Virus record (IMG/VR): IMGVR_UViG_3300025867_000005
DNA: 64,000 nucleotides
From: a virus
Lineage: Duplodnaviria; Caudoviricetes
Strand: one strand, 5' to 3'
In this document: positions 37,618 to 56,737 of the stretch, in pieces
Position numbering within the stretch: position 1 is the first letter of the stretch
Layout of the letters: each line of letters starts with the position of its first letter
Notes under the pieces: model-generated
Seen by the model: the letters and a program-made list of their open reading frames with translations, nothing else
Database searches by the model: none
Told to the model about the DNA's origin: nothing
Position numbers and translations under genes: made by a program

Positions 37618-37662
37618 ATTTTGATAATCCACTGAAAGGATAGTTGAAACATGAGGTGCAAT

Positions 37663-38463
37663 ATGGTAGAAAGAAGGTCATCAGTAGACAGATTTCTCAA
37701 AAAGTTTTCAGAAACTTTGGGCTTTGGACTTAACGATTTGGTAAGCTATGCCCCGACAGGACATAAGGTAATCGGGATAGTAGTAGATATCGATCCTAAG
37801 ATTAGGAAGATTTATGTTGATTGGGGTGGCTGTGGCAATATCCATCAACACGATCCGGAAGAATTGCAGATTACCATGCTTCAGGAAAAGGCTGTTAAGA
37901 ATAAGATGGCAAGTGTCAAAATCAAGAAAATCACGGCAGCGATGGTCGGAGACATAAGTACTACGGATTTCATCGATCCTGTTACTTCTGATTTATTGAA
38001 CAAGCAGTTCGCCGCAGAGCTTTCAAATTCAGCTTTTTACCGTTGTTGCGCATCTTGGTTTGGGAATAACGGCTATCCTGGCTTTGAAGCCTATTTCCTG
38101 CGTCAAGGAGACGGTGAAGCAGAACATGCGATGAAAGTCTATACCTTCTTGGCAGAAGCCGGTATACGCGTTGTATTCCCTGTTATCAACGATCAACAGA
38201 TTGCCACGGATTTGAAATCCATCATCAAACAGACATTGGTTAAAGAAACGGAAACCACAAAGAATTGGCAGATCATTTCCAAATCGGCAGAAACAGGAAA
38301 CAATGTTGCGGTAACGGAACTTTGCCAGTGGTTCATGAAGGAACAGATGGAAGAAGAATCAAGCATCACAACCCTTTATCAGAAAGTCATGAATCTTCCT
38401 CTTAGTGGCGGTTTGGAAACAATCGACATGCTTTTGAGAGAAAAAGATCCTATCGTAAAATAA
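37663..38463 (+). CDS. Ferritin (FtnA-like) fused to an N-terminal beta domain
   Basis: LNKQFAAELSNSAFY, GYPGFEAYF, EAEHAMK, KETET, WFMKEQMEEE (ferroxidase ligands). Confidence 0.8.
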   Translation: MVERRSSVDRFLKKFSETLGFGLNDLVSYAPTGHKVIGIVVDIDPKIRKIYVDWGGCGNIHQHDPEELQITMLQEKAVKNKMASVKIKKITAAMVGDISTTDFIDPVTSDLLNKQFAAELSNSAFYRCCASWFGNNGYPGFEAYFLRQGDGEAEHAMKVYTFLAEAGIRVVFPVINDQQIATDLKSIIKQTLVKETETTKNWQIISKSAETGNNVAVTELCQWFMKEQMEEESSITTLYQKVMNLPLSGGLETIDMLLREKDPIVK

Positions 38464-38476
38464 CAGGAGATTGAAA

Positions 38477-38743
38477 ATGGATATCCGCAAAGAACTTCTT
38501 TTTGTCGCCAAACTGATCAAAGCAAAGCCTGAGTACGAATACGCTTGGGACCCTGACCATAAGAATAAACCAAAAGGGGAAGGCTGGGAACAGACAGATG
38601 CCGGTTGGTCTAGGAATACGGGCAAAGAAGAAAAACCAGAAAAGTATTGGGAAGGGAAGAATAAAGAAGGCGAATACTATTACGATACCATTGAATCAGA
38701 AGGGGACGAAGGCGAAAAAGAAGAAGTACAGGATGAAGAATAA
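38477..38743 (+). CDS. Leader-family protein (leader + DPxH module)
   Basis: MDIRKELLFVAKLIKA then YAWDPDHKNKPKGEGWEQTDAGWS. Confidence 0.7.
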   Translation: MDIRKELLFVAKLIKAKPEYEYAWDPDHKNKPKGEGWEQTDAGWSRNTGKEEKPEKYWEGKNKEGEYYYDTIESEGDEGEKEEVQDEE

Positions 38744-38757
38744 GGAGTAATAAATAC

Positions 38758-40422
38758 ATGAATTTCGAAGCGATGATTTCCAAATTGGCGAATGATATTA
38801 TAACAGCAGAAACTAATTATGTCTGGGACCCGGAGCATAAGAAAAATCCAGGCAGCGGTTATCAGAAAACCGATAAGGGCTGGTCTAAATCAGACGGGAA
38901 AGGGGAAATAACGAAGACGCAACAGAAGAAGGTTCCTTCAGCCCCTGTGAAGCCGACTTCGACTCCTGATGTTTCAGGACATCCTGATATTCTAAAGTCT
39001 AAATCAGGAAAGCAAATCCCGAATAACAAAGACATTCTTGATGTCATTTACAACAACTATAACGATTTCAGCGAAGCAGAAAAAAACAACCTTTTGTCTT
39101 TTTATCGCCAAAAAGCGGATGCCTTGAGTGCTGAAGCGAAGAAACACTACAGTCACCCAGAAGTGTTCAAGAACCTTATCGGTCTAAATAATGAAACTCT
39201 TGATATCATAGAACTCCTGAAGAGCAAAGAAGGATATGATCAAAAGGGGAAAGACATAGAATTAACCAACAGGGTAATAGCCGCTAAAAACTCCAAGGAT
39301 TTCAAGATGGCACTTGGCAAGGTATCTAGCGCCTTCCCTGACTATACGACAGAAGAGGCAACAGTCAATTTCTTGTCGAACCCGAAGATGGCGAAGAATC
39401 TTAAAACTGAAGAACGCAAGGCTCTTCAGGAATACTTTGAAGCAAACAAGTCTGCTTTTGAAAATGAACTAAGTAAGGAACACAAGAATCTTCTAAAAGA
39501 CGGAAAAGGTGATAAGAAAACGATTGGATATCTTTCTGATGGAATCAAGGAATTTGATAAAGTCCTTTCACGGTTGTCTCCACTCTATCCTTCGTATCAA
39601 AAGCTTACGGATATGAAGAAATCAGGGCCGTTTCAGAAAGTCTATCAGTTTGTCAAGAATGTAAAGCCTGGTCCTGTTGCTGAACAAGAATTTATTGATG
39701 TCTTGGGAGAACCGACACATCTTAACACACTGACTTCAGAAGAGAAAAAGGCAATCTCCGATTTCTTCCAAATGAAGAAACAACTTTGGGCAGCCGACGC
39801 GAAGAAAAATCCCGATCTTCAAACTCTTGCAGAAGACGGTATCAAGAAGATGGATCAAATTATTTCCCTTGTCAATCCAAATACAAACAAGAAGGCACCT
39901 GACCCGTCTCAAGTTATGTCTCGTCTTTTCAAAGAACCGGAAATGATAAGTGTCGCTGATAAACCGAAGGTTATCCAGACGTATAAAAATTGGCTTGCAG
40001 CAAATAAGGATAAGAAGGACAAAGATACACAGGCTAAGGTTTCGGACGTAAGGCTTGCTGTCAAGATGTTGGAAGGCCCACGCTTCAAAAAAGTAGACCC
40101 GAAGCTTTCAGGAAACCTTATGTATCTTGTCAAAGACAATGACCTCGGGGATGAATTGCAGGAACTCGCTGGCTTTAAGGAAACCATCAAGAATCATCCT
40201 CAAATGTCTAACAAGGAATACAAGCAGAGGATAGATCAAGGAATGAAGCTTCCTAGAAGTCAGGCACAGCTTAAACAGGCTTTCATCATGAATATGAACC
40301 CGATGAACTACCCGGACATGCAGGCTTTCCAAGCCGCGAAACAAAGGGTTCAGAAAATGGATATCAATGATTTCGGTAAGCTTTTGGCAAGCCTTAACGC
40401 GGATGAAGAAGAAACGATTTAA
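38758..40422 (+). CDS. Leader-family protein, large helical cargo
   Basis: MNFEAMISKLANDIITA then YVWDPEHKKNPGSGYQKTDKGWS; has the C-terminal helical module. Confidence 0.7.
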   Translation: MNFEAMISKLANDIITAETNYVWDPEHKKNPGSGYQKTDKGWSKSDGKGEITKTQQKKVPSAPVKPTSTPDVSGHPDILKSKSGKQIPNNKDILDVIYNNYNDFSEAEKNNLLSFYRQKADALSAEAKKHYSHPEVFKNLIGLNNETLDIIELLKSKEGYDQKGKDIELTNRVIAAKNSKDFKMALGKVSSAFPDYTTEEATVNFLSNPKMAKNLKTEERKALQEYFEANKSAFENELSKEHKNLLKDGKGDKKTIGYLSDGIKEFDKVLSRLSPLYPSYQKLTDMKKSGPFQKVYQFVKNVKPGPVAEQEFIDVLGEPTHLNTLTSEEKKAISDFFQMKKQLWAADAKKNPDLQTLAEDGIKKMDQIISLVNPNTNKKAPDPSQVMSRLFKEPEMISVADKPKVIQTYKNWLAANKDKKDKDTQAKVSDVRLAVKMLEGPRFKKVDPKLSGNLMYLVKDNDLGDELQELAGFKETIKNHPQMSNKEYKQRIDQGMKLPRSQAQLKQAFIMNMNPMNYPDMQAFQAAKQRVQKMDINDFGKLLASLNADEEETI

Positions 40423-40434
40423 AGGAGTACTGAA

Positions 40435-41292
40435 GTGAACTACAAATCAGAAATTTCAAAAATAGCAAAAATCATTATCGCAGATTCTGATTATGTTTAT
40501 GACCCCGAACATAAGAATAATCCTGGTGGTGGTTATCATCGTACAGAAAAGGGTTGGTCTAAACAAGACTGGAATGGGCAGACAGAAGTTTCTCCTGAAT
40601 CCGGTTCTTCTAAAAAAGAACCATTAAAAATAGACAACTGGGACCCAGCCGTATATGGAGGGTTTTGGGGATCATGGAATTCCACGCCAGCAGCAAGACA
40701 TTTTTTAGAATTCGGTGACGAAAGCGTTGTCAAAGATGAAAAATTCTATGATGAACTTTTTAACGGAAAACTTGGAATTAAAGAACTGCTAAAGAGAGTG
40801 GGAGATAGTTTGCAAGGGAAAGGTGAATATACAGAATTTGGATACACAAAGAAAGACATGATCGACTTGGGACAATTCGCCCTTTATGCTGCAAACAAAG
40901 CCCGCAAAGACGGTATCGACATCGACAAAATCGTATACGGCAAATCGGCCAATCCGGAAAAGAAACCAGAGACTTTTTCGGAAGAAAAGAAAATGAAATT
41001 GGTAAGGGAAATGCCGGGATATTGGTCGGGTTTGAACAAGCTTCAAAGGAACCGTTTAAGTTGGGATGACTTCCATACAAGAGTGATGGATAAATCTATT
41101 GACTTGACTTCAGAGGAAGCACTCTCGATGGCGGCGGTATTGAAGATAAAACAAGATTCTGCATTGAAACTCGCTGAATCTTATAAGAAAAGTGATAGTC
41201 CATTTGCAGGACGGGCAAGGATGATGTCAGAAAGAGAAGCAGAAAAACTTGGCGGGTATGCTGAAGACTTCAACAAGATTGCAAATCAATAA
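40435..41292 (+). CDS. Leader-family protein
   Basis: MNYKSEISKIAKIIIA then YVYDPEHKNNPGGGYHRTEKGWS. Confidence 0.7.
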   Translation: MNYKSEISKIAKIIIADSDYVYDPEHKNNPGGGYHRTEKGWSKQDWNGQTEVSPESGSSKKEPLKIDNWDPAVYGGFWGSWNSTPAARHFLEFGDESVVKDEKFYDELFNGKLGIKELLKRVGDSLQGKGEYTEFGYTKKDMIDLGQFALYAANKARKDGIDIDKIVYGKSANPEKKPETFSEEKKMKLVREMPGYWSGLNKLQRNRLSWDDFHTRVMDKSIDLTSEEALSMAAVLKIKQDSALKLAESYKKSDSPFAGRARMMSEREAEKLGGYAEDFNKIANQ

Positions 41293-41304
41293 GGAATAAC
41301 TGTC

Positions 41305-42171
41305 ATGTATTTCTGTAAAGCACCAAGGATTTATGTTTTAACGCGAAAGGAAAAAGAAACAGGGGTTTATGTCTGCCCCTTTTGCGGGAAAGTTTTGAAG
41401 AAAGGTTCTCTTTCGAAATCTGAAAAGCTTTTTCAATGTCGTACATGCGGGTTCAAGATAACGGGTAGAGACATCTTATCGGAATATCCGAATCAGAAAG
41501 TAAGTATTGACATTGGCATTGAAATTCAGAAGGTCGCAAAGGTCATTGTTTCAGAGACGAAAGAAGAAAAGGACCCATTTGGATTCGCCAAAAGCAAAGC
41601 CCATCAAATTTTTGAAAAAGCCAAAAAAGCAGACAACAACGTTTCTCAATGGGAAATCACGACAGAGAAGCAATCACCAGAATTATACAAGTTCAATGCC
41701 TTCCCACGGAAATCTGGAAATGATGCTGTTATTGCTATCGAAGTGACTAAAAGAAACCAAAATCTTTTAGGTAAAGAGATAGAATCTGTTACCTTTTCCA
41801 TTTTAGTAAAAGGCGGAAAAGAAGTTTTTAGCATACAGACTTCCAATATTTATGCGGTAAAATCACTTTTCGACAAAATTCTGAGGAAAGATTTCACGGA
41901 ATTTTTCTCTACGAAAACTGACAACAAGATGACGGAAGTCAAGAATTTCATCAAATCCAAGTTTCATCTTACCCCAGATGAAGAAGACAGTGATAGCCTT
42001 CATTACGCGACAAGAGATCACGGAGATGTAGAAGAAGAGACTCCGGGTAAAGAAGACATCCAGCTTATCAAGCAGGTCATTTCGGGAGTCAAGGCGAAAT
42101 TCAAAAACTTGGTATTGCGTCCAGAAATCGTAGATGAATGGGTACAGCTTGAAATAAAATTAGAAGGTTGA
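41305..42171 (+). CDS. Zn-ribbon protein with internal leader motif
   Basis: CPFCG...CRTCG followed by IDIGIEIQKVAKVIVSE. Confidence 0.65.
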   Translation: MYFCKAPRIYVLTRKEKETGVYVCPFCGKVLKKGSLSKSEKLFQCRTCGFKITGRDILSEYPNQKVSIDIGIEIQKVAKVIVSETKEEKDPFGFAKSKAHQIFEKAKKADNNVSQWEITTEKQSPELYKFNAFPRKSGNDAVIAIEVTKRNQNLLGKEIESVTFSILVKGGKEVFSIQTSNIYAVKSLFDKILRKDFTEFFSTKTDNKMTEVKNFIKSKFHLTPDEEDSDSLHYATRDHGDVEEETPGKEDIQLIKQVISGVKAKFKNLVLRPEIVDEWVQLEIKLEG

Positions 42172-42219
42172 TTGCCTATAAAATTTGATAACCTTACGTA
42201 TACCTAAACAAGAGGTTAT

Positions 42220-43218
42220 ATGAACACGAACAATTTTCCAAGGCATTTATCTGTAAAGAACAGAGAAACACTCCTTCATCCAGGCAGTGGGATTAAAGTT
42301 CAGAATGTCAAAATTCTAACGAATCCACGATATGAATGGGAAAGAATATGCAGGGGACGTACAAGAATCGCCCACAGCATTGATATCGACTGGAAGCGTT
42401 TCAACCTGAATGACTATATCTTCACACATGACTCCATCGTGTCGAGCGTAGAAACAGAAGCCAACGGATATTATATCAAGCCCATCTGTTCGAAGATCGT
42501 CAATTTAAACGGCAACGCGTGGACAAATCCCGTTCTTCTAGCGACATTCCGTACTTTCGTAGGTGGTTATAATTTCGAAGAACATGTTCAAATCCCAAGC
42601 CAAAGCAAAGGAATGATTCTTGATGCCGTTCTTCGTCCTTTTCAATACAGGGATGAAAAAGGCAATATCGCCAATGTCTATATCTGTGACATCCTCGTTG
42701 CCACATGTAAAAGCAATTGGGAACTGGTACAGGAAATACAAACAGGAAAGATGAGAACCTTGTCGATGGGAACCCAGTGCCGTTCCGTCCAATGTAGCCA
42801 TTGCGGTAAGATATTCAGAGATGATGAAGACAGTTGCGATCATATAAAGTACGAACTCGGACAGATGTTTGTCGATGAAAACGGAATCGAACGCATTACT
42901 GCTGAACTCTGCGGTTGCAGCATTTGGGATGCAATAAAGAAAGAATGGATAGGAGATCCGGAATCCAACACCTTTATTGAAGCCAGTTGGGTTAAACATC
43001 CCGCATATGTAGGAGCCGTTGTAAACCATTTCATCAATCCGAAGAATGTAAATCCTTCACTGTTTAAAGAAGCGTCTATCGAAGAATCCATTCAGGGATT
43101 GTTCAATGTCCGGGTTGCTGACAGATATGGGAGGTTGTCTTTGAATCTTCTCAGACAGAAACAGGAGATTGACAAAAGGGAAGGAATGATAAACAGAATC
43201 ATTTCGTCAAAGCATTAG
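42220..43218 (+). CDS. Prohead protease with Zn-finger insertion
   Basis: N.NGNAW, FEEH, KGMILDA, IQTGKMRTLSMG (catalytic Ser), CSHCG..CDH, FIEASWVKHPA. Confidence 0.8.
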   Translation: MNTNNFPRHLSVKNRETLLHPGSGIKVQNVKILTNPRYEWERICRGRTRIAHSIDIDWKRFNLNDYIFTHDSIVSSVETEANGYYIKPICSKIVNLNGNAWTNPVLLATFRTFVGGYNFEEHVQIPSQSKGMILDAVLRPFQYRDEKGNIANVYICDILVATCKSNWELVQEIQTGKMRTLSMGTQCRSVQCSHCGKIFRDDEDSCDHIKYELGQMFVDENGIERITAELCGCSIWDAIKKEWIGDPESNTFIEASWVKHPAYVGAVVNHFINPKNVNPSLFKEASIEESIQGLFNVRVADRYGRLSLNLLRQKQEIDKREGMINRIISSKH

Positions 43219-43227
43219 GAGACAGAT

Positions 43228-43758
43228 ATGAACAGTAAAGACTTGACAAGGATAGCAAAACTTCTTATCGCGGATTACCGTTATGATCCTCGCCATGAAA
43301 ACAAACCACAGGGTCTAGGCTGGAAACAGACAGAAGGCGGATGGACGAACGTGTTGCACAGGATTAAGAAGACGGAACCGAAGGAAGTTGAACAAGAATC
43401 GGATGTCCCTGAAATAAAGGTCAAGAATTCCCCAGTCCCAGAAGTTTCTGAAAACAAAAAGAGGTTGTCTGTTCTGTTGGGGCAGGCCGGAACAAAAGGA
43501 TTGCTTGACAGAGATACGGAAGGTAAGGCTATAGTAGAACAGAAGGACATCGACAGGATTAATTCAATGCTTTATAAGTCAAGAGGGAATAGAGACAAGG
43601 TAAGAATGTATGTCGAAAATATGTCAAGCGCAATCACTAATCCTAAGAAAGCTGTTCGTAGAGGTCTTGCGGCTTTCCACGGATTGAAAGATGAATTCGG
43701 CAAAGAATTCGCTTGGGAAATGGCTTCAGTTTTCGTCGGCAAAGGATTAAGCCTGTAG
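43228..43758 (+). CDS. Leader-family protein
   Basis: MNSKDLTRIAKLLIA then YRYDPRHENKPQGLGWKQTEGGWT. Confidence 0.7.
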   Translation: MNSKDLTRIAKLLIADYRYDPRHENKPQGLGWKQTEGGWTNVLHRIKKTEPKEVEQESDVPEIKVKNSPVPEVSENKKRLSVLLGQAGTKGLLDRDTEGKAIVEQKDIDRINSMLYKSRGNRDKVRMYVENMSSAITNPKKAVRRGLAAFHGLKDEFGKEFAWEMASVFVGKGLSL

Positions 43759-43999: not shown

Positions 44000-45520
44000 A
44001 TGTCACTTAAACGTTTAGCTGAAGCGATGGAAGGAATCGCCGACGAAGCAGAATCAAAGGAACTTGATCAGGTTCTTTCTGACTTCGGTGGTGATGACGG
44101 CGAAGCGGCTCCCGCTGCTGAAGCCGAAGAAACGGAAGAAGATAAAGACGAAGCGATTGTTGCCCGTCTTGCATCTGCTACGGATGATTTTGAAATTTCA
44201 GGAATCAATTCCGGTGATCAGGATGAATTTTCTCAGGTTCAGACTGTCGGACTTGGTAAGGAAGACAAAGCTGATTATGGAACTGTCGCGGAAGCCGCAA
44301 AGAAATATGCTTTCTGCGCACGTAAGCTTGCAAGTCTTGAAGTTGAAGCAAAGAAAGATCCTAATGGCAAGAAATATCTTTCTGCTATCGCATCAATGAC
44401 CCGTATCCTTGAACGTAGGGCCGCTGCACTTAAGGTCGCTGTTGCCGACAAGACTTCGTTTAGCGGAGACCTTGGCCATGACGGAACTCGTGATGAAGCG
44501 GAATACGGTGCCTATGACACCAGCAAACCGGCTATGGACGCTGAAATTCAGAGCACATCGGCTCCTTGGAAAACAGACAAGCATGATGGACTCGGTTTGG
44601 GCATTCCTAAACCAGAAGGCGAAGTAACCCGTGAAGCAAGTTCTAAGATCGCGGCTAACCAGTCAATCCGTTTGGCGGTTTGCTTGCTCGGTTCTAAGGC
44701 TCCTGAAGATATGATTCAGGCACAGGCTGGCGAATTCTTCGCACAGATGAAGCTTGCTAGCATCGAACGCGCTCTTAAACGTATCGCGGAAACCGAAGCT
44801 CTCTATGCGTCTGAAACCACAGCCGTTAATCCAGAAGTCGTTCCTGCTGGTCCTGTCACTACGGTTGAAGAAGCCGCAAAGGAAATCAGCGCATCCGCTG
44901 AAGCTCCCGTTTGTGAAAAGAAAGACGAAGTAAAGGAAGCTGCGGCAGAACTCCCTTCTCCTGAAGAAAAGAAAGAAGATGAGTTTACCGATGATGAAAA
45001 GAAGGAAATTGACGTGATGACCGCTTCAATCGTTGCCCGTCAGGCTAAAATGCGCGAAGCCGCACTTGCCAAAGCGAAGGCATTGATTGCCGCTGAAATT
45101 CCTGTCGTCGAAGAACCTGTCGTCGAAGCTCCTGTTGAAGCCGCACCTGCGGTTGTTACAGAAGAAAAACCGGTAGAAGCCGCTGTTGAAGCAGCTCCGG
45201 TTGTTCAAGACGAGATTGCCGAAGCCGTTGCTCCTGTTGAACCAGAAGTAGCGCCTGCGGAAGAACTTCCTGCTCAGGATGATGAGATTGACTTCTCTAC
45301 TTCTACAAGCGAAGACGCTGAAGGTATCCCGGAATTGGAAGCCTGCATTGATGTCCCGAAACCGGAAGTCAAGCCAGTCGTAGCTTCAAAAACTGCGGAA
45401 GCCAAGCCGAAATTCGCACAGACTCTTGGTGGCACACCTCGCCTTGCTTCAACGAAGAAGGGTGGCGACGTGATTCTCGAAAACCTCTGGGTAAAACCAG
45501 GTGAAGAGTTCTTTGGTTAA
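44000..45520 (+). CDS. Capsid scaffolding protein
   Basis: Ala/Glu-rich, low complexity, between protease and MCP; strong SD. Confidence 0.65.
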   Translation: MSLKRLAEAMEGIADEAESKELDQVLSDFGGDDGEAAPAAEAEETEEDKDEAIVARLASATDDFEISGINSGDQDEFSQVQTVGLGKEDKADYGTVAEAAKKYAFCARKLASLEVEAKKDPNGKKYLSAIASMTRILERRAAALKVAVADKTSFSGDLGHDGTRDEAEYGAYDTSKPAMDAEIQSTSAPWKTDKHDGLGLGIPKPEGEVTREASSKIAANQSIRLAVCLLGSKAPEDMIQAQAGEFFAQMKLASIERALKRIAETEALYASETTAVNPEVVPAGPVTTVEEAAKEISASAEAPVCEKKDEVKEAAAELPSPEEKKEDEFTDDEKKEIDVMTASIVARQAKMREAALAKAKALIAAEIPVVEEPVVEAPVEAAPAVVTEEKPVEAAVEAAPVVQDEIAEAVAPVEPEVAPAEELPAQDDEIDFSTSTSEDAEGIPELEACIDVPKPEVKPVVASKTAEAKPKFAQTLGGTPRLASTKKGGDVILENLWVKPGEEFFG

Positions 45521-46186: not shown

Positions 46187-47047
46187 ATGGATATCTCAAC
46201 AGCTTCAAAGTATCAGACCATCGCTAAGTACATCAAGACTGGCGAAGGCCGTTCCCGTATCGCGGCAAGCTTCACGCAGCCCCTGCGTCAGCGTCGTGAC
46301 TATCAGAGCGTCGGTCGTAGAGCCTTCTACGTCGAACAGCTTCTTGACGGTCAGCTCCCGATTTGGGATAAGGATGCCAATGTAACGGCATATGTCATCG
46401 GTGCGGAAGGACAGAACATCCAGTGTGTTCAGAAACCACCGCGTGTTTTCTTCGACTTGTTCGAAATCGCTTCAAATCCTGAAATCTCCATCACAACGAT
46501 CCGTGAAAAGCGCTTCGATGTTTTGGAACGTTCCCTTGACCTCGCCCGTAGCGCGATCATGGCACAGGAAGACCGCTATGTGTTCGCCACAATGGACGCT
46601 TTGGCGGCATCTGCTACCAACCCGAATCCGGTTATCCAGGTCATTGGTAACTTGACTTCTAACGTTTTGATTGACGCGAAAGCGGCTGTCGAACGTAACG
46701 ATATCAGGGTAGCGAATATCTTCATGAACGCAAAGGATTACAACGATCTTTTGAAGTTCGACCGTGACACCCTCAGCCCTGAGTACCAGACTCAGTTGCT
46801 TAAGAACGGCCTCATGGCCAACATCTGGGGAATCAACATCATCGTAAGCCGTATCGTCGCAGAAGGCGATGTCTATGTCTGCGGTGAACCGGAATTCTTC
46901 GGACGTATCCCCGTTCGTCAGGACCTCACCGTCCTTTCAGCGGATGATCCTCGTAACCGCATGGTCGGCTTCTCGGTCTTCGAAATGATCGGTTGCGGCT
47001 TGTGGAATCCGTTGGCAATGAGCAAGATTCAGATTACCCGCGTGTAA
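46187..47047 (+). CDS. Major capsid protein (HK97 fold)
   Basis: RIAASFTQPLRQRRDY, FEIASNP, IMAQED, IFMN..DYNDL, IWGINIIVS; followed by a strong terminator. Confidence 0.85.
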   Translation: MDISTASKYQTIAKYIKTGEGRSRIAASFTQPLRQRRDYQSVGRRAFYVEQLLDGQLPIWDKDANVTAYVIGAEGQNIQCVQKPPRVFFDLFEIASNPEISITTIREKRFDVLERSLDLARSAIMAQEDRYVFATMDALAASATNPNPVIQVIGNLTSNVLIDAKAAVERNDIRVANIFMNAKDYNDLLKFDRDTLSPEYQTQLLKNGLMANIWGINIIVSRIVAEGDVYVCGEPEFFGRIPVRQDLTVLSADDPRNRMVGFSVFEMIGCGLWNPLAMSKIQITRV

Positions 47048-47120: not shown

Positions 47121-47262
47121 ATCTTCTGGTATCGGTTTTGTTTTTGTCAAAACGAATTATTCATAGACATCTCTCTTTTATCCCTTCCTATGTTCGGTTG
47201 AATTCCGATATTTTTTGATGTCTGTCCCTATTATTGTAAAAACAAAGGAATCCGTCCGAAGT

Positions 47263-49152
47263 ATGAAAATCGATGTAGAAGAATTGCGTAGGCTTTACGT
47301 TTCAGAAGGTCTTACAGATGCGGAAATCGGTAAATGTTTCAGTGTTTCAGACGTATGTGTAAGCCAATACAGGAAGAAGGCGGGAATCCCCACCATAAGC
47401 CATAGGGACAAAATTTCCAAACATGCAATAGAAAGGGGATTGACGGATATCCAAGAAATTGATAGAACGGAATTTGAGAACTTGTACCTTAAACATGGGG
47501 AAAGAGAATTAGGGAAGATTTTCGGATGTAGTAAGCAATTGATAAAAACAAGGCTTATGGAATTAGGAATCAATCCTTTATCCAAGACCGACAGGATTCT
47601 TAAAACCTGCCCGCTTCAATTTACAGACTTGCAGAAAGACGTTCTTTACGGTTCTCTATTAGGTGACGGAAGCCTTACAACTGTTGGCAATTCAGCAAGG
47701 TTTAGGGAATGTCATTGCATGGCACAGAAAGCCTATCTGGAATACAAACACTCAATCCTTAACCCGTTTTCCAAACCGATAGGAACGGCTGACAAAGAAA
47801 TGCCTAGCGGATATGTAAGTAGGGGCTTCTATTTCAACACCTGTTTCCACCCTCTGTTTCTGGGTTTCTACGACCGGTTTTACAAAGACGGAGAAAAGAT
47901 ATTACCTCTTGACTTTGAGGTTGTTTTCAACCCGAGGATACTTTCAATTTGGTATATGGATGACGGACACCTAGAAGGATTCGAAGGACGTGGAAGGGTT
48001 CAGATAGCTTCCTGTTTTTGGAAAGCGGACATTGCAAGGATTCTCTTCGTTATGAATGAAATGGGATTAGAAGCCGATAGCAGTTTTTATCCCAATTCCA
48101 CGAAAGGGATTAACATCATACGGATCAAGAATGTCGATCTATTCTTCTCCATGACAAAACACCTTATCCATCAGGATTTCCAATACAAGATTCCTGAACG
48201 TTTAGGAGGGAAATGGAAAGAAAAGATTTCAGAAACAGATGTGGAATCATGGTTTTATTTTCTAAGAACTAACGGAATGTCATATCCCGTTCTTTCAACA
48301 GAAGCTTTTCAAAAAGATATGCGGGGATTACAGTCTTCACAAGTACGCAGGGAAGATAATCTATTGGATTGCCCCAGTGTTTCAGGATCTAAAACCTGCC
48401 TGTCGGTTTTCAAGAATATCTATGTCGCCAAGAGAAAAGGTAAGAAATCTGCGACAGATGTTTTTGAAGACGACAAACTCTTAAGGCACTGTCTTAGTGA
48501 CTGTATCAAGTTTTACGGAAGAATTACAGAAACGAATCTAAGACAAGAACTCCGTAGTTTCGGCGGTGTCAACAACTTCAAGCCGGTATTGGCTAAATAC
48601 ATCTACGATACCTATTGCCCGCCAAACGGAAAAGTTCTAGATCCTTGTAGCGGATGGGGAGGACGGCTTTGCGGATTTATGGCTTCAAAAGCCGGACACT
48701 ATACCGGTGTCGATGTCGAATCTGAAAGTATCAAAAATCTCAAACAATTGTTTAAGAAGATGAATCCCGTTTTCCCTGGCAAAGTATTCAGATGTCAAGA
48801 AACCAGTTTCACAGAATTCAAAGACAAAGGATATGATTTGGTTTTTACCAGCCCTCCATATTTTGACGCCGAATACTACGGGGAAAGTAGGAATCAGAGT
48901 CAGGTAAGGTTTCCTACATATGATTTATGGCTGACGGGTTTTCTGAAAGACATGATAGACAGGTCTTGGAATTCGCTCAATCCGGGTGGAAGAATCATTT
49001 TGAATGTACCGGCTAGATGTAAGTTCAATATCTACAAAGATGTGAAAGCTTTTATGCCTGTCGAAAAAGAACTTCGGATTAAGACAAACGGCAGATACGG
49101 AAGTCCATCAGGATTTGAATGGCTCCTGATCTCTTTTACTAAACCCTATTGA
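47263..49152 (+). CDS. HTH-LAGLIDADG endonuclease-DNA methyltransferase fusion
   Basis: Tandem HTH; LYGSLLGDG and WYMDDG; MTase motif I LDPCSGWGGR and motif IV TSPPY. Confidence 0.8.
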   Translation: MKIDVEELRRLYVSEGLTDAEIGKCFSVSDVCVSQYRKKAGIPTISHRDKISKHAIERGLTDIQEIDRTEFENLYLKHGERELGKIFGCSKQLIKTRLMELGINPLSKTDRILKTCPLQFTDLQKDVLYGSLLGDGSLTTVGNSARFRECHCMAQKAYLEYKHSILNPFSKPIGTADKEMPSGYVSRGFYFNTCFHPLFLGFYDRFYKDGEKILPLDFEVVFNPRILSIWYMDDGHLEGFEGRGRVQIASCFWKADIARILFVMNEMGLEADSSFYPNSTKGINIIRIKNVDLFFSMTKHLIHQDFQYKIPERLGGKWKEKISETDVESWFYFLRTNGMSYPVLSTEAFQKDMRGLQSSQVRREDNLLDCPSVSGSKTCLSVFKNIYVAKRKGKKSATDVFEDDKLLRHCLSDCIKFYGRITETNLRQELRSFGGVNNFKPVLAKYIYDTYCPPNGKVLDPCSGWGGRLCGFMASKAGHYTGVDVESESIKNLKQLFKKMNPVFPGKVFRCQETSFTEFKDKGYDLVFTSPPYFDAEYYGESRNQSQVRFPTYDLWLTGFLKDMIDRSWNSLNPGGRIILNVPARCKFNIYKDVKAFMPVEKELRIKTNGRYGSPSGFEWLLISFTKPY

Positions 49153-50764: not shown

Positions 50765-52495
50765 ATGTCGGAATCCATTTTTTTGAAAATATCTAAAATC
50801 GCCAAATTTCTTTCAGCCGATGGGAAATGGGTAAAGTTTAATTCAAAGTCTCAGAAGCAGGGTTGGAAAAGGAAGAAAGACGGCGGAGGATTTGAATACC
50901 GCTATCAAGACAACGATCCTAACAAAGAAAATAGTTCTGTTGAAAAAAAAGCAATTGAAGACTTAAAGAAAACTAGTGTATTCCGGGATATTGATAATTT
51001 CGGAGAAATTATTGATTCTAAACCAACAGGTAAAAAAGGTATATATCAAGTCACAATAAAACGGGGTTATAAAGAGAAATATGAAGTTGAAACTTCAGAT
51101 TCGGAACTTGGAGTCATGGGGATTAAGAACAAAATACTTGCCAATAGACTGTATAAAACAGCGAACGTTCTTCTCGGACCCGTCTTTCTTTCAGAATTCC
51201 AAGGGAAGCCAGCGATTTTCACAGAGAAGGAGGATACCAGCCTTGACACTCCTGAACTTAAAGAAAATGCTATCGAAACGTCATTCGGTGAAAACTTCCG
51301 TAAAGGATTTATTATTGACGTTTTGCTTGGTAACAATAACGTTCTTGGAAACAATTTCCAAAACGTAGAGATTGTTGGTGGTGTAGTCAGAAGGGATAAC
51401 AAACACACATTGCTATTCAGGGAAGGGGGTATTGACAGTCTTTCAGATCAAGCCGTAGAACTGTATGATTTCAGGGACAAAAACAAATACCCGCAGTTGG
51501 CAAAATTCTATTCAAAGATCAGAGATGATGAAATCATAAAGCAGATTTCAAAAACGGCGATAGCTCTGAATGATGATGTCTTAGCAGACATTGTTACAGA
51601 AATGTTCCCGTCTCCAGAAGAATCAGAGATAGCCAAAAAGTTAATAGATAAGCTAATCAAAAGAAAAAAATATTTGTTGGACTTTGCGAAAGTCAAGGCT
51701 GTTGAGATGATACAGGAAAAGGTTCTTAAGAGAAAGGAGAAATACATTGTCGGACCCGGTATTGTGGAAGAAAAGACGATGACGACAGCAGAAGCAAAGT
51801 CAATCCGCAACTATTCTGATACTGATTATATGCCTATAAACAAATATCTTCGTGGAGAATTAAATCATAATGAGATAAAGGAAACGCCATTTGAAACAGA
51901 AGTCGGAATCAAGGATGCTTGCAAGACGCTAGTTCAGGCTTTGCAGAAACTACCGGCACATGAAGGAATCGTTTATAGAGGTTCTGAAGTAGATGAAGCC
52001 AGCCTCATTTCCATTATGGGGATGAAGCCAGGTGATTCAATCTATATGAAGTCTTTCACCTCAACAAGTAAATCAGAATCTAACGCATTAGAATTCAGTA
52101 CTGATGTTTTGTTTGAAATCGAAAGTCGTACCGGTAGAGACATTTCACATATGAGTGAATATCCTACAGAAGAAGAAGTCATTATGTCACCTGATACTAG
52201 ATATGAAGTGAAGTCAATGGAGTTCGAACAAGAATATATCCGCCTGAAGCTCAAAGAACTTCTCCCAGAAGAAGGTAAAACAAGGTTGTCCGTCAACCTT
52301 AAGAAGAACAAAAAGATGGACCCGAATGAAGTCAGAAAGTTCCTTTTGAAGAATCCGAAGCTTACACGGAAACAACGTGAACGTATTATGCGGCTTAATC
52401 CGGATCAATTGATTAAAATCATTCTGGCAATATTCTCCAAGAAAGGCAACAAGGTAAAAGAAGAATCTAACAAGTTTACAGAAATCTTCATTTAG
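50765..52495 (+). CDS. Leader-family ADP-ribosyltransferase (VIP2/exoenzyme-like) with degenerate kinase-like domain
   Basis: INKYLRG, VYRG, SFTSTS, EEEVI (R-S-ExE); leader KISKIAKFLSA. Confidence 0.85.
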   Translation: MSESIFLKISKIAKFLSADGKWVKFNSKSQKQGWKRKKDGGGFEYRYQDNDPNKENSSVEKKAIEDLKKTSVFRDIDNFGEIIDSKPTGKKGIYQVTIKRGYKEKYEVETSDSELGVMGIKNKILANRLYKTANVLLGPVFLSEFQGKPAIFTEKEDTSLDTPELKENAIETSFGENFRKGFIIDVLLGNNNVLGNNFQNVEIVGGVVRRDNKHTLLFREGGIDSLSDQAVELYDFRDKNKYPQLAKFYSKIRDDEIIKQISKTAIALNDDVLADIVTEMFPSPEESEIAKKLIDKLIKRKKYLLDFAKVKAVEMIQEKVLKRKEKYIVGPGIVEEKTMTTAEAKSIRNYSDTDYMPINKYLRGELNHNEIKETPFETEVGIKDACKTLVQALQKLPAHEGIVYRGSEVDEASLISIMGMKPGDSIYMKSFTSTSKSESNALEFSTDVLFEIESRTGRDISHMSEYPTEEEVIMSPDTRYEVKSMEFEQEYIRLKLKELLPEEGKTRLSVNLKKNKKMDPNEVRKFLLKNPKLTRKQRERIMRLNPDQLIKIILAIFSKKGNKVKEESNKFTEIFI

Positions 52496-53017: not shown

Positions 53018-54766
53018 ATGTTTTTAACACAATGTCTTATCAAAATCGCCAAAATAATCATTTCAGATGAGAAATGGGTCAAGTTTGAATCCGATTCAGA
53101 AAAACAGGGATGGAAGAGAAAAAAACCTGAAGGAGGGTATGAATACCGATATCAAGAGAAAGACCCTAACTTAGAGACGACTAAAGAAAAAACGGAAGGA
53201 CTGCCCAAAGAAATAGCAGAACTTGAATCTTTAAGAGCGATTCCAAAGTATGTCGGGGATGAATGGTTTCACAATATTAAAAGCGTTGATAAATTAGGTG
53301 GCAGCACCGGCGCTGTGAAGGTTGTGACAGAAAATACCTTCGGAACCGTAAATGAAATGGTCGTGAAAACATATGAAAACAATGGCGGCATTAATCAGAT
53401 CAAGAACGAATATCTTGCCAACAGTCTTTATCGTCAGTTAAATGTCAGTGTTCCAGAGACATATGTCGGATATTACAAAGGCAAACCCGCTCTAATCACG
53501 AAGTTTTTGCATGGTAAAGAAGCGCAAATAGAAAACGATAGAGGCATTCTCAAAGGATTCGTTGCTGACGCCTGGCTTGCCAACTGGGATTCTATAGGGC
53601 TGTCTGGAGATAACGTGTTGTATTCCTTCGGCAACACGTATAGAATCGATAATGGCGGTGCGTTGCTGTTTCGGGCACAAGGAGAACCAAAGGGTAACGC
53701 TTTTGGGGATGAAGTAACAGAACTTGATAGCCTTAGAAGTCCTGAAATTAATGTGATGACAGCAAAAGCTTTTGATCAGATAAAAGATTCTGACATCATG
53801 AAACAAGCAATGGAACTTGAAATAAAGATGACAGATGAAAAAATCAGGTCAGTGGTAGAATCTGTCTATAATTCAGATCAAGAAGCGGACTTTGCTAAGA
53901 AACTTTCTGATAGACTGATCAATCGTAAAAAATACATTATTTCTTACGCTAAAAAGTTGGCGATTAAGCGGATTCAAGACAATGTCTTGAAAAGAGAAGC
54001 CCGTTATGTCGTCGGAGAACCGAGTGGAAAAAAGATAACTGTCACTGATAATAAAACAATAAGAGACTATACATCATTAGGTTTCATGGAAATAAACAAG
54101 TATTTGAGAGGAAAAATAGATGATCCTTCAGATGAACCCAAATTTCGTAAAAAAGCCTCTAATCTTGTTACAAGTTTGAAAAAACTACAACCTTATACCG
54201 GTAAGGTTTATCGCGGATCTCACTTGGATGACGCGACAAAACTCGTTATGGCGACAATGAAGCCAGGTGATTTGATTTACATGAAGGCGTTCACTTCTAC
54301 TAGTAAATCAGCATCAAAAGCGGAGCAATTCACTTCAGATGTAAATTTTGAAATCGAAAGTCTAACGGGAAGAGAAGTAGTTGCTTATAGTAAGTATCCT
54401 ACAGAAGAAGAAGTTATTATGTCGCCTGATACCAGATATGAAATCACAGATATTCAAATAACCCCAGATCCGTATTTGGGAAATGCGTTAATCAGAATCA
54501 AGATGAAGGAATTACTTCCTGCACAGAGAGAGACAAAGCTTCCTGTTAACATGAGGAAGAAAGAACCTTCCGCGAATGATTTAAAGGATTTTCTTTTGAA
54601 GAATCCAAAACTTACGCAGAAACAAAGAGAAAGGATTATGCGCCTTCCTCTTGAAGACTTGAAGAAACTTGTTCTTATGATGTTCGCACACGGGAAGAGA
54701 AACCGTGTCGTCAACGATGATGTTACAGAAGAACAAAGCGGAAAGTTCACAGAAGTTTTTATTTAA
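53018..54766 (+). CDS. Leader-family kinase-like (HipA/CtkA/PI3-4K-like) + ADP-ribosyltransferase fusion
   Basis: Kinase part: LGGSTGA, VVK, NEYLAN, DAWLANWD, N, RIDNG. ART part: VYRG, AFTSTS, EEEVI. Leader LIKIAKIIIS. Confidence 0.85.
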   Translation: MFLTQCLIKIAKIIISDEKWVKFESDSEKQGWKRKKPEGGYEYRYQEKDPNLETTKEKTEGLPKEIAELESLRAIPKYVGDEWFHNIKSVDKLGGSTGAVKVVTENTFGTVNEMVVKTYENNGGINQIKNEYLANSLYRQLNVSVPETYVGYYKGKPALITKFLHGKEAQIENDRGILKGFVADAWLANWDSIGLSGDNVLYSFGNTYRIDNGGALLFRAQGEPKGNAFGDEVTELDSLRSPEINVMTAKAFDQIKDSDIMKQAMELEIKMTDEKIRSVVESVYNSDQEADFAKKLSDRLINRKKYIISYAKKLAIKRIQDNVLKREARYVVGEPSGKKITVTDNKTIRDYTSLGFMEINKYLRGKIDDPSDEPKFRKKASNLVTSLKKLQPYTGKVYRGSHLDDATKLVMATMKPGDLIYMKAFTSTSKSASKAEQFTSDVNFEIESLTGREVVAYSKYPTEEEVIMSPDTRYEITDIQITPDPYLGNALIRIKMKELLPAQRETKLPVNMRKKEPSANDLKDFLLKNPKLTQKQRERIMRLPLEDLKKLVLMMFAHGKRNRVVNDDVTEEQSGKFTEVFI

Positions 54767-54808: not shown

Positions 54809-56737
54809 ATGGATACCAAAATGAAAGAAGCAATCACTTCACTTATTAAAAACCGCAGGTTTCAAAACTGGTGCTTGATTATATTGGCATCTGTTGTCGC
54901 GTATATCACGGGCAAACGGATTCTCAAATATTACGGTGTTCGTCCTAGCAAAAAGGATAAAAGAGATTTTGGAATTTCTATGGCCGAAAATCCAGCCAGA
55001 TTCCAGAATTCTTTCTGCCTTCCATTGCCGGTATTAAAGAATCAGCAAACGGTTTCAAGTTGTCATGACGATCAAACTGAGGTTATGACGAGATATGGAT
55101 GGAAATTCTTTAAAGAAATATCTTCTAGTGATTTATTAGCAAGTGTAAATCCAGAAGACGGAAACCTAATTTTTGAAAATCCTATCAATATATTGCGTCA
55201 AAGGTATATTGGTAAAATGATATATGGTACACATAGAAGTATTGATTTTATGGTTACACCGAACCATAAAATGATTGTAAAGAAATGGGAAGAAAGTAAA
55301 AGGGTTCTTTCTGAAAAATATTCGGTAGTAGATGCATCCGATCTTGGATTTTGTGTAGGACTTAGAACGGATTTCTATCAAAACAAAAAAAAGCAAGAAG
55401 TTATTATTTTACCAGAAGAAAAGGTGTCTAACGGGAATATCCTTCCGAGGATGGAAATAAAACTTTCTGATTGGGTTAAATTTTTAGGGATATATTTAGC
55501 AGAAGGTACGATGCTTGATCCTTCTCGCCATTATCCCATTCAGATAGCGGCCTTTAAAAACCGAGAGCGTTCATTTGTGGAAAATTTGTTTAACAGGATG
55601 GGAATTCACGGAGTGTCTTCTAAAGATCGTTATGTTGTTTCAAATAAAAGAATATGGTCTTTGTTGTCTGGATATGGTCTTTATAAGGTAAAATCATATG
55701 ATAAGTTTGTCCCTGATTTTATTTTCGATCTTGATTCTGAATTGATTAAAGATTTTCTTTATGGTTTCGCGATGGGAGATGGGTATTTCACCAAAGAAGG
55801 AGAAGTCCGTTATTATACATCTTCGAAGCTTCTGGCAGAACAATTAAGAATGTTGATGGTTATGAGTGGAAGTTCCACCACAATGTATACGAGGGATGTT
55901 CGTGGTAAAAAATGTTTTCTTAAAGACGGAAGGACTATCATTTCTAAACATATTGGATATGTTATAAACCAATGGAAAACGAATAGTTTAGGGCTAAACA
56001 GAAAAAAAAATATAAAAGAAGTTGACTATGATGGATATGTATATTGTGCTGAAGTACCAACATATCATACTCTTATTACAAGAAGAAATGGGAAAGTCCT
56101 ACTTTCCGGCAACTGCTGCGCACACAGCATGTCTTATATCGCGGAATCCATATTGCCGAAATCAGGAGATTATAACCTCGATAGGGTAAGCGTAGGCTGG
56201 ATATACGGCTACCGCCCAGCAGGTTATTATCAGGGAGAAGGAATGTATCCTCGGCAGGCTCTTAATACGATTCAGAAAAAAGGCGTCATCAGGCATAGGG
56301 ATTTCCCCTATAACGAAGAAGTCCCGGCCGTCATTAACCGAGTCAACGGAAGTCTGGATGATTTACTGAAGAAGGCGGAACCCAATAAGATACCGGTATT
56401 CTTCCAGTTGAAGACCGATGATGAAATCAAACAGTGCCTTACAAAATACGGACCTGTTTCTATTATGTATCCAGTTTACGATTCTTTCAATACTCCTGTT
56501 GAAGGGAAAATTGAAACAGCAAGAGGTAAGTTTTACGGATATCATCAAGTTACGCTTTACGGATGGACAGGGGATTGTTGGCTGATGGTAAACAATTGGG
56601 GCAACTGGGATGAAGACGGAATCGCATATATCCATAAATCTTATCCTTGGCAAGAAGCATGGGGACTTTCGGTTGATCCTTCAGCAGCGATAGAACCTCA
56701 AAAAAAAACTTCTTTTCTAAAATCGTTATTTGGATAA
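54809..56737 (+). CDS. Membrane-anchored papain-like (C1) cysteine peptidase, intein-containing
   Basis: NQQTVSS|intein|CCAHS, YHQV (His), NNWG (Asn), GIAYI. Confidence 0.85.
   Translation: MDTKMKEAITSLIKNRRFQNWCLIILASVVAYITGKRILKYYGVRPSKKDKRDFGISMAENPARFQNSFCLPLPVLKNQQTVSSCHDDQTEVMTRYGWKFFKEISSSDLLASVNPEDGNLIFENPINILRQRYIGKMIYGTHRSIDFMVTPNHKMIVKKWEESKRVLSEKYSVVDASDLGFCVGLRTDFYQNKKKQEVIILPEEKVSNGNILPRMEIKLSDWVKFLGIYLAEGTMLDPSRHYPIQIAAFKNRERSFVENLFNRMGIHGVSSKDRYVVSNKRIWSLLSGYGLYKVKSYDKFVPDFIFDLDSELIKDFLYGFAMGDGYFTKEGEVRYYTSSKLLAEQLRMLMVMSGSSTTMYTRDVRGKKCFLKDGRTIISKHIGYVINQWKTNSLGLNRKKNIKEVDYDGYVYCAEVPTYHTLITRRNGKVLLSGNCCAHSMSYIAESILPKSGDYNLDRVSVGWIYGYRPAGYYQGEGMYPRQALNTIQKKGVIRHRDFPYNEEVPAVINRVNGSLDDLLKKAEPNKIPVFFQLKTDDEIKQCLTKYGPVSIMYPVYDSFNTPVEGKIETARGKFYGYHQVTLYGWTGDCWLMVNNWGNWDEDGIAYIHKSYPWQEAWGLSVDPSAAIEPQKKTSFLKSLFG
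55061..56113 (+). mobile_element. Intein with LAGLIDADG homing endonuclease (351 aa)
   Basis: Block A CHDDQTEVMT..GWK, block B VTPNH, FLGIYLAEG and FLYGFAMGDG, block F VYCAEVP, block G RRNGKVLLSGN|C. Confidence 0.9.

Follow-up and report, generated by a model that had tools for sequence, protein, structure and literature searches.

The DNA considered here is a 64,000-nucleotide stretch (hereafter the window) of the tailed-phage record IMGVR_UViG_3300025867_000005, and this 64-kb window corresponds to bases 20571-84570 of one 304,025-bp phage contig rated 100% complete. The head-morphogenesis block, which spans about 27.7 kb to 47 kb in the window, contains four genes whose products begin with the same element, a leader helix followed by a short aromatic module; the two parts together are called the tag throughout this paper. 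All four lie downstream of the portal gene (30002) and upstream of the capsid gene (46187), on both sides of the prohead protease gene. They are listed with their module cores, each of which was found by regular expression and scored with a profile:

38477..38743, + strand: tag-only gene of 88 amino acids (aa), ATG start, AGGAG ribosome-binding site
38540..38608, + strand: module core copy 1, residues 22-44 (Y-A-W-D-P-D-H ... G-W), profile E 1.3e-19
38758..40422, + strand: 554-aa gene with leader, module, helical repeat body and conserved acidic C-terminal tail (residues 487-554)
38818..38883, + strand: module core copy 2, residues 21-42, profile E 7e-20
40435..41292, + strand: 285-aa gene, GTG start, with leader, module and unique body
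40492..40557, + strand: module core copy 3, residues 20-41, profile E 4e-20; the target of structure prediction
43228..43758, + strand: 176-aa gene directly 3' of the prohead protease gene, with leader, module and helical body
43276..43344, + strand: module core copy 4, residues 17-39, profile E 2e-20

The window was scanned in six frames with a regular expression for the motif Y-x-[WY]-D-P-x-H-x3-P-x0-1-G-x2-[WY]-x2-T-x2-G-W, which was found in exactly four open reading frames (ORFs); the scan gave no fifth copy in the window, and the recurrence of the motif is far above chance. The broader form Y-x-[WYH]-D-P-x-H-x3-P-x0-1-G-x2-[WYF]-x2-T-x2-G-W is likewise confined to four ORFs of the window. 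The original prediction, made from the sequence alone, had stated that the four genes carry the module after a leader and then diverge completely, and this was confirmed for all four by the ORFs and by alignment: the proteins have 13 invariant columns within their first 46 residues and no similarity beyond. It had also described 38477 as little more than the module and an acidic tail. Indeed, the 88-aa protein consists of leader helix, module and acidic tail and nothing else, and an identical copy of it is present in a public protein collection (P0010). One full-length homologue of the 285-aa protein 40435 was found by word-based homologue search, a type of search that returned few matches, with chance candidates crowding others out. 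The helical body of the 176-aa protein 43228 is common to P0007 and P0133.

Gene turnover at the module locus is fast. In a near relative whose capsid protein is 99% identical, present in IMG/VR and also mis-binned into a Paludibacteraceae metagenome-assembled genome (MAG), 38477 and 38758 have orthologues joined in frame into a single protein, the 386-aa P0004, which contains two tandem modules (L009/L025, 6831-8030). The middle of the 554-aa protein is deleted in this relative, gene 40435 is missing without any orthologue, and the capsid genes are almost unchanged.

Across the whole 304,025-bp genome, seven module copies were detected with a 38-position profile (E 2e-20 to 1e-19 each). The three copies outside the window are all close to the N-terminus of their proteins:

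genome 152846: 958-aa protein without leader helix, with a PGDYG-like end (weak Pfam match under the curated cut-off)
genome 178091: 332-aa protein without leader, module from residue 5
genome 209387-210247: 286-aa protein (P0003) with an S-adenosylmethionine (SAM) lyase domain (PF23780), leader degenerate at most

The position right after a leader, which had been given as a feature of the module, is thus correct for the four window genes but not for the 332-aa and 958-aa proteins, nor for internal and C-terminal copies found elsewhere. Third-codon positions at identical residues agree in about 20-65% of cases between the paralogues (typically 40-55%). Because these synonymous sites are near saturation, the seven paralogous copies appear to be old and under selection, and a recent duplication of the module was rejected.

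The family was sized by a profile search against 1.84 billion representative proteins, in which 285 clusters were counted at E<=1e-3 and 42 at E<=1e-10; all counts of position, cargo, two-unit members and tails given below cover the best 150 of the 285 clusters. With these clusters elsewhere and third positions near saturation at home, the module is not a recent private duplication. Nor is it a known Pfam family. No match to it was found in Pfam even at E<=10 (hmmscan), in NCBIfam or in PHROGs. The PDB profile search returned insignificant matches only, namely the 9-residue 'YIWDPEHKK' of vaccinia A47 (E 0.33) and the G-W-S hairpin of complement factor H CCP domains (E about 5), all of which were treated as chance. 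ESM Atlas has no named cluster for the module, look-up of the 88-aa protein there gave nothing meaningful, and a literature search for the motif string found no paper. Pattern scans of IMG/VR recovered two loci, both from near relatives of the source phage, and a second degenerate DNA pattern gave no match in IMG/VR. In a narrow pattern scan of 185,579 species genomes, the sole matches were phage contigs mis-binned into one MAG. The module was seen on phage-type contigs only.

One metagenomic candidate, P0005 (1054 aa), was excluded from the family, its match being confined to profile positions 16-28. This protein contains twelve tandem repeats of the form C-P-x-G-x-x-W-x-K-T-D-D-G-W-R-C-A-G-G-x-H-F, which match only the P-x-G...W-x-K-T-x-x-G-W hairpin and belong to a different, Cys-stabilised family with the same hairpin motif.

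The residues that define the tag were examined in an alignment of 132 helix+module units. The leader consensus is M-N-x-K-x-I-A-x-E-L-x-K-I-A-K-x-L-L-A-D, in which one Ala is 90% conserved, and leaders end in A/S-D/E. The module consensus is [DE]-Y(100%)-[IV]-Y(84%)-D(99%)-P(98%)-[DE]-H(100%)-K-K-K-P(98%)-x-G(92%)-G-G-[WY]-x-K-T(99%)-E-K-G(99%)-W(100%)-S-K, followed by a K/E-rich linker. The tag is basic and lysine-rich, as can be seen in H-K-K-K-P and W-x-K-T-E-K-G-W-S-K. Such conservation, extreme for a phage protein, with near-invariant Y, H, W, D, P, T and G, implies that the module probably has a conserved partner.

An AlphaFold2 model of the 40435 protein, based on the 132-row alignment, predicted a helix at residues 3-16 and then three short strands (Y-V-Y at 20-22, 35-36, and G-W-S at 40-42), with a predicted local distance difference test score (pLDDT) of 89 over residues 21-40 and disorder after residue 46. 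Searches with the tag model gave a best match of E 3.2 in Foldseek against the PDB, no chain with Z>=2 among 48,161 chains in VIA-align, and no convincing neighbour in the ESM Atlas shape search. Because the domain is very small, a missing fold match is weak evidence. The prediction of an unannotated mini-domain was borne out in Pfam, NCBIfam, PHROGs, the PDB profile search, Foldseek, VIA-align and ESM Atlas, all of which were without a match, and the helix and beta-module constitute an undescribed domain family with a unit of about 45 residues.

Two known families were considered as relatives of the module. It had been called 'WW-like', and the predicted three-stranded mini-sheet fits this term only loosely; no WW match was found in sequence or fold. 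Like the predicted module, the WW domain has three short strands, a length of about 25-35 residues, conserved aromatics and a Pro; it differs in lacking the D-P-x-H and T-x-x-G-W signature and the helix ahead of the sheet. The WW profile calls for a C-terminal Pro and for two Trp at a distance of 20-22 residues. Membership in the WW family (PF00397) was therefore rejected by sequence, with no Pfam match at E<=10 and a different signature (Y-x-Y-D-P-x-H ... T-x-x-G-W). The module may also resemble the cell-wall/choline-binding repeat PF01473 (G-W-x-K ... G-x-W-Y-Y hairpin). PF01473 repeats usually occur in tandem arrays; membership was rejected, as no Pfam match was obtained and the module is single-copy.

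The module starts within residues 1-30 in 132 of the 150 members, most often at residue 15-24 and usually directly after an amphipathic helix. Two units are present in 8 of the 150, often one per end. Complete helix+module units also occur at C-termini or inside proteins (P0006, P0008, P0009, P0014 and P0016), and P0006, P0008, P0009 and P0016 have a helix ahead of their second copy too, whether that copy is internal or C-terminal. Since second copies bring their own helix, helix and sheet behave as one unit for which an N-terminal place is not required. There are also proteins that start with the module (P0002, P0018 and P0063) and members without a helix (P0001 and P0024). The idea of the original prediction that the module becomes the mature N-terminus found no support; processing to a mature N-terminus is unlikely to be essential for the module, because units are found at C-termini and inside proteins and some copies are leaderless.

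Behind the tag, the proteins differ widely. The layout of a constant N-terminal module with variable cargo, compared in the original prediction with polymorphic effectors, holds at large scale: a conserved N-module is combined with many unrelated C-terminal domains, including enzyme- and toxin-type cargo. The domains recognised were as follows:

LRV/HEAT repeats: 46 of 150 members
SAM lyase: 4 of 150
ART-PolyVal: 3 of 150
PI3/PI4-kinase-like: 2 of 150
phage lysozyme: 1 of 150
topoisomerase I: 1 of 150
zeta toxin: 1 of 150
RelA/SpoT: 1 of 150
no recognised family: many of the 150

Some members contain little beyond the tag, and several database members have 58-80 aa. The fusion of tag and SAM lyase (T3 SAMase-type, PF23780) recurs in several phages (P0003, P0015, P0020, P0155 and P0156); if packaged, a tagged SAM lyase would act against restriction as an injected enzyme.

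In 24 of the 150 members a further conserved element was found, an acidic tail of about 65 residues that stands nearly always at the very C-terminus. It reads ...Q-L-K-x-D-F-x-x-N-M-x-P-x-N-Y ... A-F-x-x-A-K-x-R-x-Q-K-M ... D-F-G-K-L-L, followed by a Glu/Asp run. In the 554-aa protein the tail is encoded at window 40216-40419, and a related tail is present on both ADP-ribosyltransferases of the window (50765-52495 and 53018-54766). These two enzymes, which match the PHROG of packaged ADP-ribosyltransferases of the T4 Alt-like kind, and a CCA-adding enzyme also have the leader helix. A second aromatic module, W-x7-9-G-W-[KR]-R-K-x3-4-G-x-[YF]-E-Y-R-Y-x3-D-P, was observed after the leader in the ADP-ribosyltransferases (50765-50920 and 53018-53170) and in one distant gene (genome 148108); it resembles the first module in permuted form, but the module profile does not detect it.

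The other genes of the head block relevant to the tag are listed below:

27718: terminase
30002: portal (phrog_16240)
33149: CCA-adding enzyme, with the same leader helix as the module genes
37651-38463: ferritin-like protein (PF00210) with an N-terminal SH3-like domain
41305: zinc-ribbon protein
42220..43218, + strand: prohead (head maturation) protease (phrog_18299, E 1e-12)
44000..45520, + strand: acidic scaffold-like protein, upstream of the capsid gene and kept in relatives
46187..47047, + strand: HK97-fold major capsid protein (PF05065, phrog_2522)

The N-terminus of the scaffold-like protein is similar to the leader helix of the module genes. In the protease, His70, His122 and Ser182 are conserved and there is a Cys4 insertion; presumably this enzyme would cut the leaders of the module proteins. 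Its AlphaFold2 model, made from a 4-row alignment, had a mean pLDDT of 46 and was too poor for a fold search, and a search against PDB sequences gave chance zinc-finger matches only. The inserted segment is zinc-ribbon-like (C-S-x-C-G-K ... C-x-H), with its Cys and His residues kept in all four aligned homologues, and one protease homologue (L023) is interrupted by an intein. LAGLIDADG/intein-like sequences were also seen inside late-region genes at window 54809-56737 (PF14528) and 47215-49152. The SH3-like domain of the ferritin-like protein is found ahead of helix+module in P0030 as well (45% identity over 42 residues), and an N-terminal stretch that looks SH3-like, judged by eye, is present in P0006 and in a separate 153-aa gene on a 204-kb contig (L011, 8440-8901).

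The capsid protein has 56% identity to that of LR745208.1 (a 485-kb uncultured phage), 43% to that of Tunturi_5 (a 309-kb Tunturiibacter phage) and 36% to that of Bacillus phage G, and 1324 relatives in public data, many of them on 100-345 kb contigs. These identities and the relatives on large contigs place the source virus among the huge phages of the phage-G capsid lineage. A Bacteroidota host is hinted at by the MAG-binned relative together with ORF 35233, which has a Bacteroidota-style signal peptide. JALNVE010000038.1 and JALNVE010000002.1, deposited in GenBank under a 'Paludibacteraceae bacterium' MAG, are contigs of a closely related huge phage, which is either a binning artefact or a hint of the host.

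The sequence TTTGATA was observed 22-39 nt ahead of the start codons of the ferritin (37651), protease (42220) and ADP-ribosyltransferase (53018) genes, and likewise at two of the three distant module genes (genome 152846 and 209387). Genome-wide, it occurs 20-55 nt upstream of 35 genes. It may be a phage promoter element that links distant module genes with the head genes.

In several phages, members of the family, with its predicted fold and polymorphic cargo, adjoin protease, scaffold and capsid genes. Apart from the four genes of the window and those of the near relative, which likewise stand beside head genes, the 204-kb contig has three module genes (products of 1627, 401 and 418 aa) that immediately precede its scaffold-like, decoration-like and capsid genes, and a module-kinase gene is located directly 3' of the capsid gene on a 270-kb contig. 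On a 345-kb contig, no module was seen closer than 10 kb to the capsid gene.

In T4, unrelated internal proteins owe their affinity for the assembly core to short N-terminal capsid-targeting sequences (CTSs), which the prohead protease then removes, and Alt carries propeptides at both termini (PMC9026906). By analogy, helix and module may form a CTS-like tag for head loading and ejection in huge phages of the phage-G lineage, a tentative reading to which we assign a probability of roughly 45%. The unit would be the constant address part of polymorphic internal head (ejection) proteins. During prohead assembly, the basic tag would bind the assembling core (acidic scaffold, protease or inner shell) and carry the fused cargo into the head. 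The helix would act as the T4 capsid-targeting sequence does, and the prohead protease may trim it after the A/S-D/E end. The beta-module, far better conserved than the helix, would probably stay on the mature protein as a second docking element, by which the cargo would be held to a conserved virion component or to DNA and then exit with the genome; many members also have the acidic C-terminal tail as a second conserved element. Anti-defence and takeover enzymes would make up the cargo and be delivered along with the DNA.

Several lines of evidence argue for this reading. The leader and the module are common to unrelated proteins in or near the head-gene module, and the leader on head-block enzymes, the acidic ends of the leaders, the acidic scaffold and the basic tag all fit the T4 model. 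Module genes adjoin protease, scaffold and capsid genes, and the two-unit and tailed members parallel T4 Alt. The cargo types also match those of injected proteins, since ART-PolyVal, SAM lyase, zeta toxin, RelA/SpoT, lysozyme, kinase-like and LRV/HEAT proteins are the kinds that phages are known or proposed to inject. The 285 clusters with a mostly N-terminal module, the extreme conservation, the predicted fold with its pLDDT of 89 and the occurrence on phage-type contigs only count in favour as well. A prediction of the complex of the capsid protein (38-row alignment) with helix+module (132-row alignment) gave a score of 0.00, which, obtained without controls, speaks neither for nor against binding. 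We infer packaging, cleavage, the binding partner and ejection from this combination of features; ejection, DNA binding and binding to the core, as suggested in the original prediction, would be roles of the same inferred kind.

A number of observations weigh against the head-loading reading. The presence of members in the virion is itself a prediction. Of the seven genomic copies, three are found away from the head module; two of these are leaderless and the third, the SAM-lyase protein, has a leader that is degenerate at most. Other members adjoin genes for RecA, ParB, DNA polymerase III, methylase or ArdC-N/MPTase-PolyVal. Since some proteins have the leader alone, whatever the leader does can be done without the module. 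In profile searches of their whole genomes, LR745208.1 and Tunturi_5, which have related capsid proteins, proved to be without the module, and the partner is therefore not simply the shared capsid fold. No cultured phage with the module was found when two members were compared by tblastn with 50,697 phage isolate records.

Several of these observations would be expected if the module served for localisation or interaction within the infected cell, guiding phage enzymes of diverse kinds to a single conserved target of host or phage (a nucleic acid, the replication compartment or some host machine, for instance), and the leader helix alone decided packaging. This main rival would account for the leaderless copies that start with the module or have no helix, for the three genomic and several foreign copies in non-structural neighbourhoods, for the leader standing alone on other head-module enzymes, and for a module that is position-independent, being N-terminal, internal or C-terminal. 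We consider it unlikely, although a serious competitor: the great majority of copies (the 132 noted above) are N-terminal after a helix, C-terminal copies usually have their own helix, so that both parts travel together, and module genes are enriched beside protease, scaffold and capsid genes. Moreover, virion genes are scattered in huge phages, so a location off the head module is weak evidence.

A more specific form of the head-loading reading is improbable; in it the module would be a small fold that binds nucleic acid and thereby ties internal proteins to the packaged genome, as the basic internal proteins of T4 are tied, to let them travel with the DNA. Module and linker are lysine-rich and run into K/E-rich low-complexity sequence, small tag-only proteins such as 38477 and the 58-80-aa database members exist, and the predicted three-stranded sheet would have exposed aromatic residues, which on such a sheet are a common means of DNA binding. 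These points are set against conserved acidic residues beside the basic ones (D 99%, D/E at two more positions) and against the PDB profile, Foldseek, VIA-align and Atlas shape searches, none of which gave similarity to a known DNA-binding fold.

FlhB/YscU cleave themselves at an N|P-T-H switch, as do mucins and RGM proteins at a G-D|P-H site. By pure analogy D-P-x-H, with D, P and H at 99%, 98% and 100% and at fixed spacing and with the modelled D-P closing the first strand and opening a loop, might be a self-processing site at which an Asp-Pro cut near His frees leader and first strand without a protease. This is very improbable, as the spacing is unlike GDPH, the first residue is Asp where NPTH has Asn, an Asx-Pro turn on which a His stacks is also an ordinary structural motif, and C-terminal copies would gain no obvious benefit from the cleavage.

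To return to the head-loading reading, a stronger form of it was also considered, in which helix+module, often with the acidic tail, would be the universal loading and ejection address of an unrecognised polymorphic injected-effector system in uncultured huge phages; we regard this as rather doubtful, and a bolder variant still would have the invariant D-P-x-H render the tag self-cleaving. Knowledge of huge phages comes almost entirely from metagenomes, and most of their genes are without a role; the tag offers a way to group hundreds of their proteins. Should it serve as an address for packaging and ejection, a profile search could list, without culturing, what an entire lineage injects, and that arsenal would comprise anti-restriction SAM lyases, ADP-ribosyltransferases, tRNA-repair enzymes, kinases, alarmone synthetases and zeta toxins. 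As a candidate Pfam-type family of only 45 residues, the tag could also, if the reading is true, be a compact handle for bringing foreign proteins into large capsids. Its near-invariant Y, D-P, H, T and G-W residues point toward a specific conserved partner or chemistry.

Among known systems, the T4 CTS of IPI-III and Alt (Mullaney & Black 1996, PMC9026906) is like the tag in being a short N-terminal amphipathic element with an acidic end. Both are common to proteins that evolve fast, are otherwise unrelated and have their genes among the head genes; an ADP-ribosyltransferase is one of these proteins in each case. The propeptides at both ends of Alt resemble the arrangement of the two-unit module members. 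Unlike the tag, the CTS has about 10 residues, is not followed by a folded domain and shows no detectable sequence relation to it; the tag in turn contains a 25-residue beta-module with near-invariant residues that is also found without the helix.

The MuF polymorphic toxins (PMC5576092) likewise combine a constant head-morphogenesis N-terminal part with a variable C-terminal toxin or enzyme, and RelA/SpoT-like and ADP-ribosyltransferase cargo is common to both families. In the MuF toxins of temperate phages, however, the constant part is the MuF (SPP1 gp7) domain PF04233 of about 300 aa, compared with the 45 residues of the tag, and no match to PF04233 was found among the 150 members or the window proteins. 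The phages also differ, those with the tag being huge and lytic-type, with no immunity genes seen.

The polyvalent proteins of phages and conjugative elements are reported (Iyer et al. 2017) to carry effector domains that would be delivered along with the DNA. They overlap with the tag family in ART-PolyVal, which occurs in three of the 150 members, and in the ArdC-N/MPTase-PolyVal gene beside one member. They are giant multi-effector fusions without a small common N-terminal tag, whereas most tag members carry a single cargo domain. Encapsulin cargo-loading peptides provide a further parallel as short tags that load enzymes into an HK97-fold shell, and a ferritin-like protein is encoded just upstream of the module genes (37651); encapsulin tags, in contrast, are usually C-terminal, unstructured and unrelated in sequence, and the source virus is a tailed phage with portal and terminase. 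The concept therefore has precedents in the T4 CTS, the MuF toxins and the polyvalent proteins, and the domain family at its centre is new.

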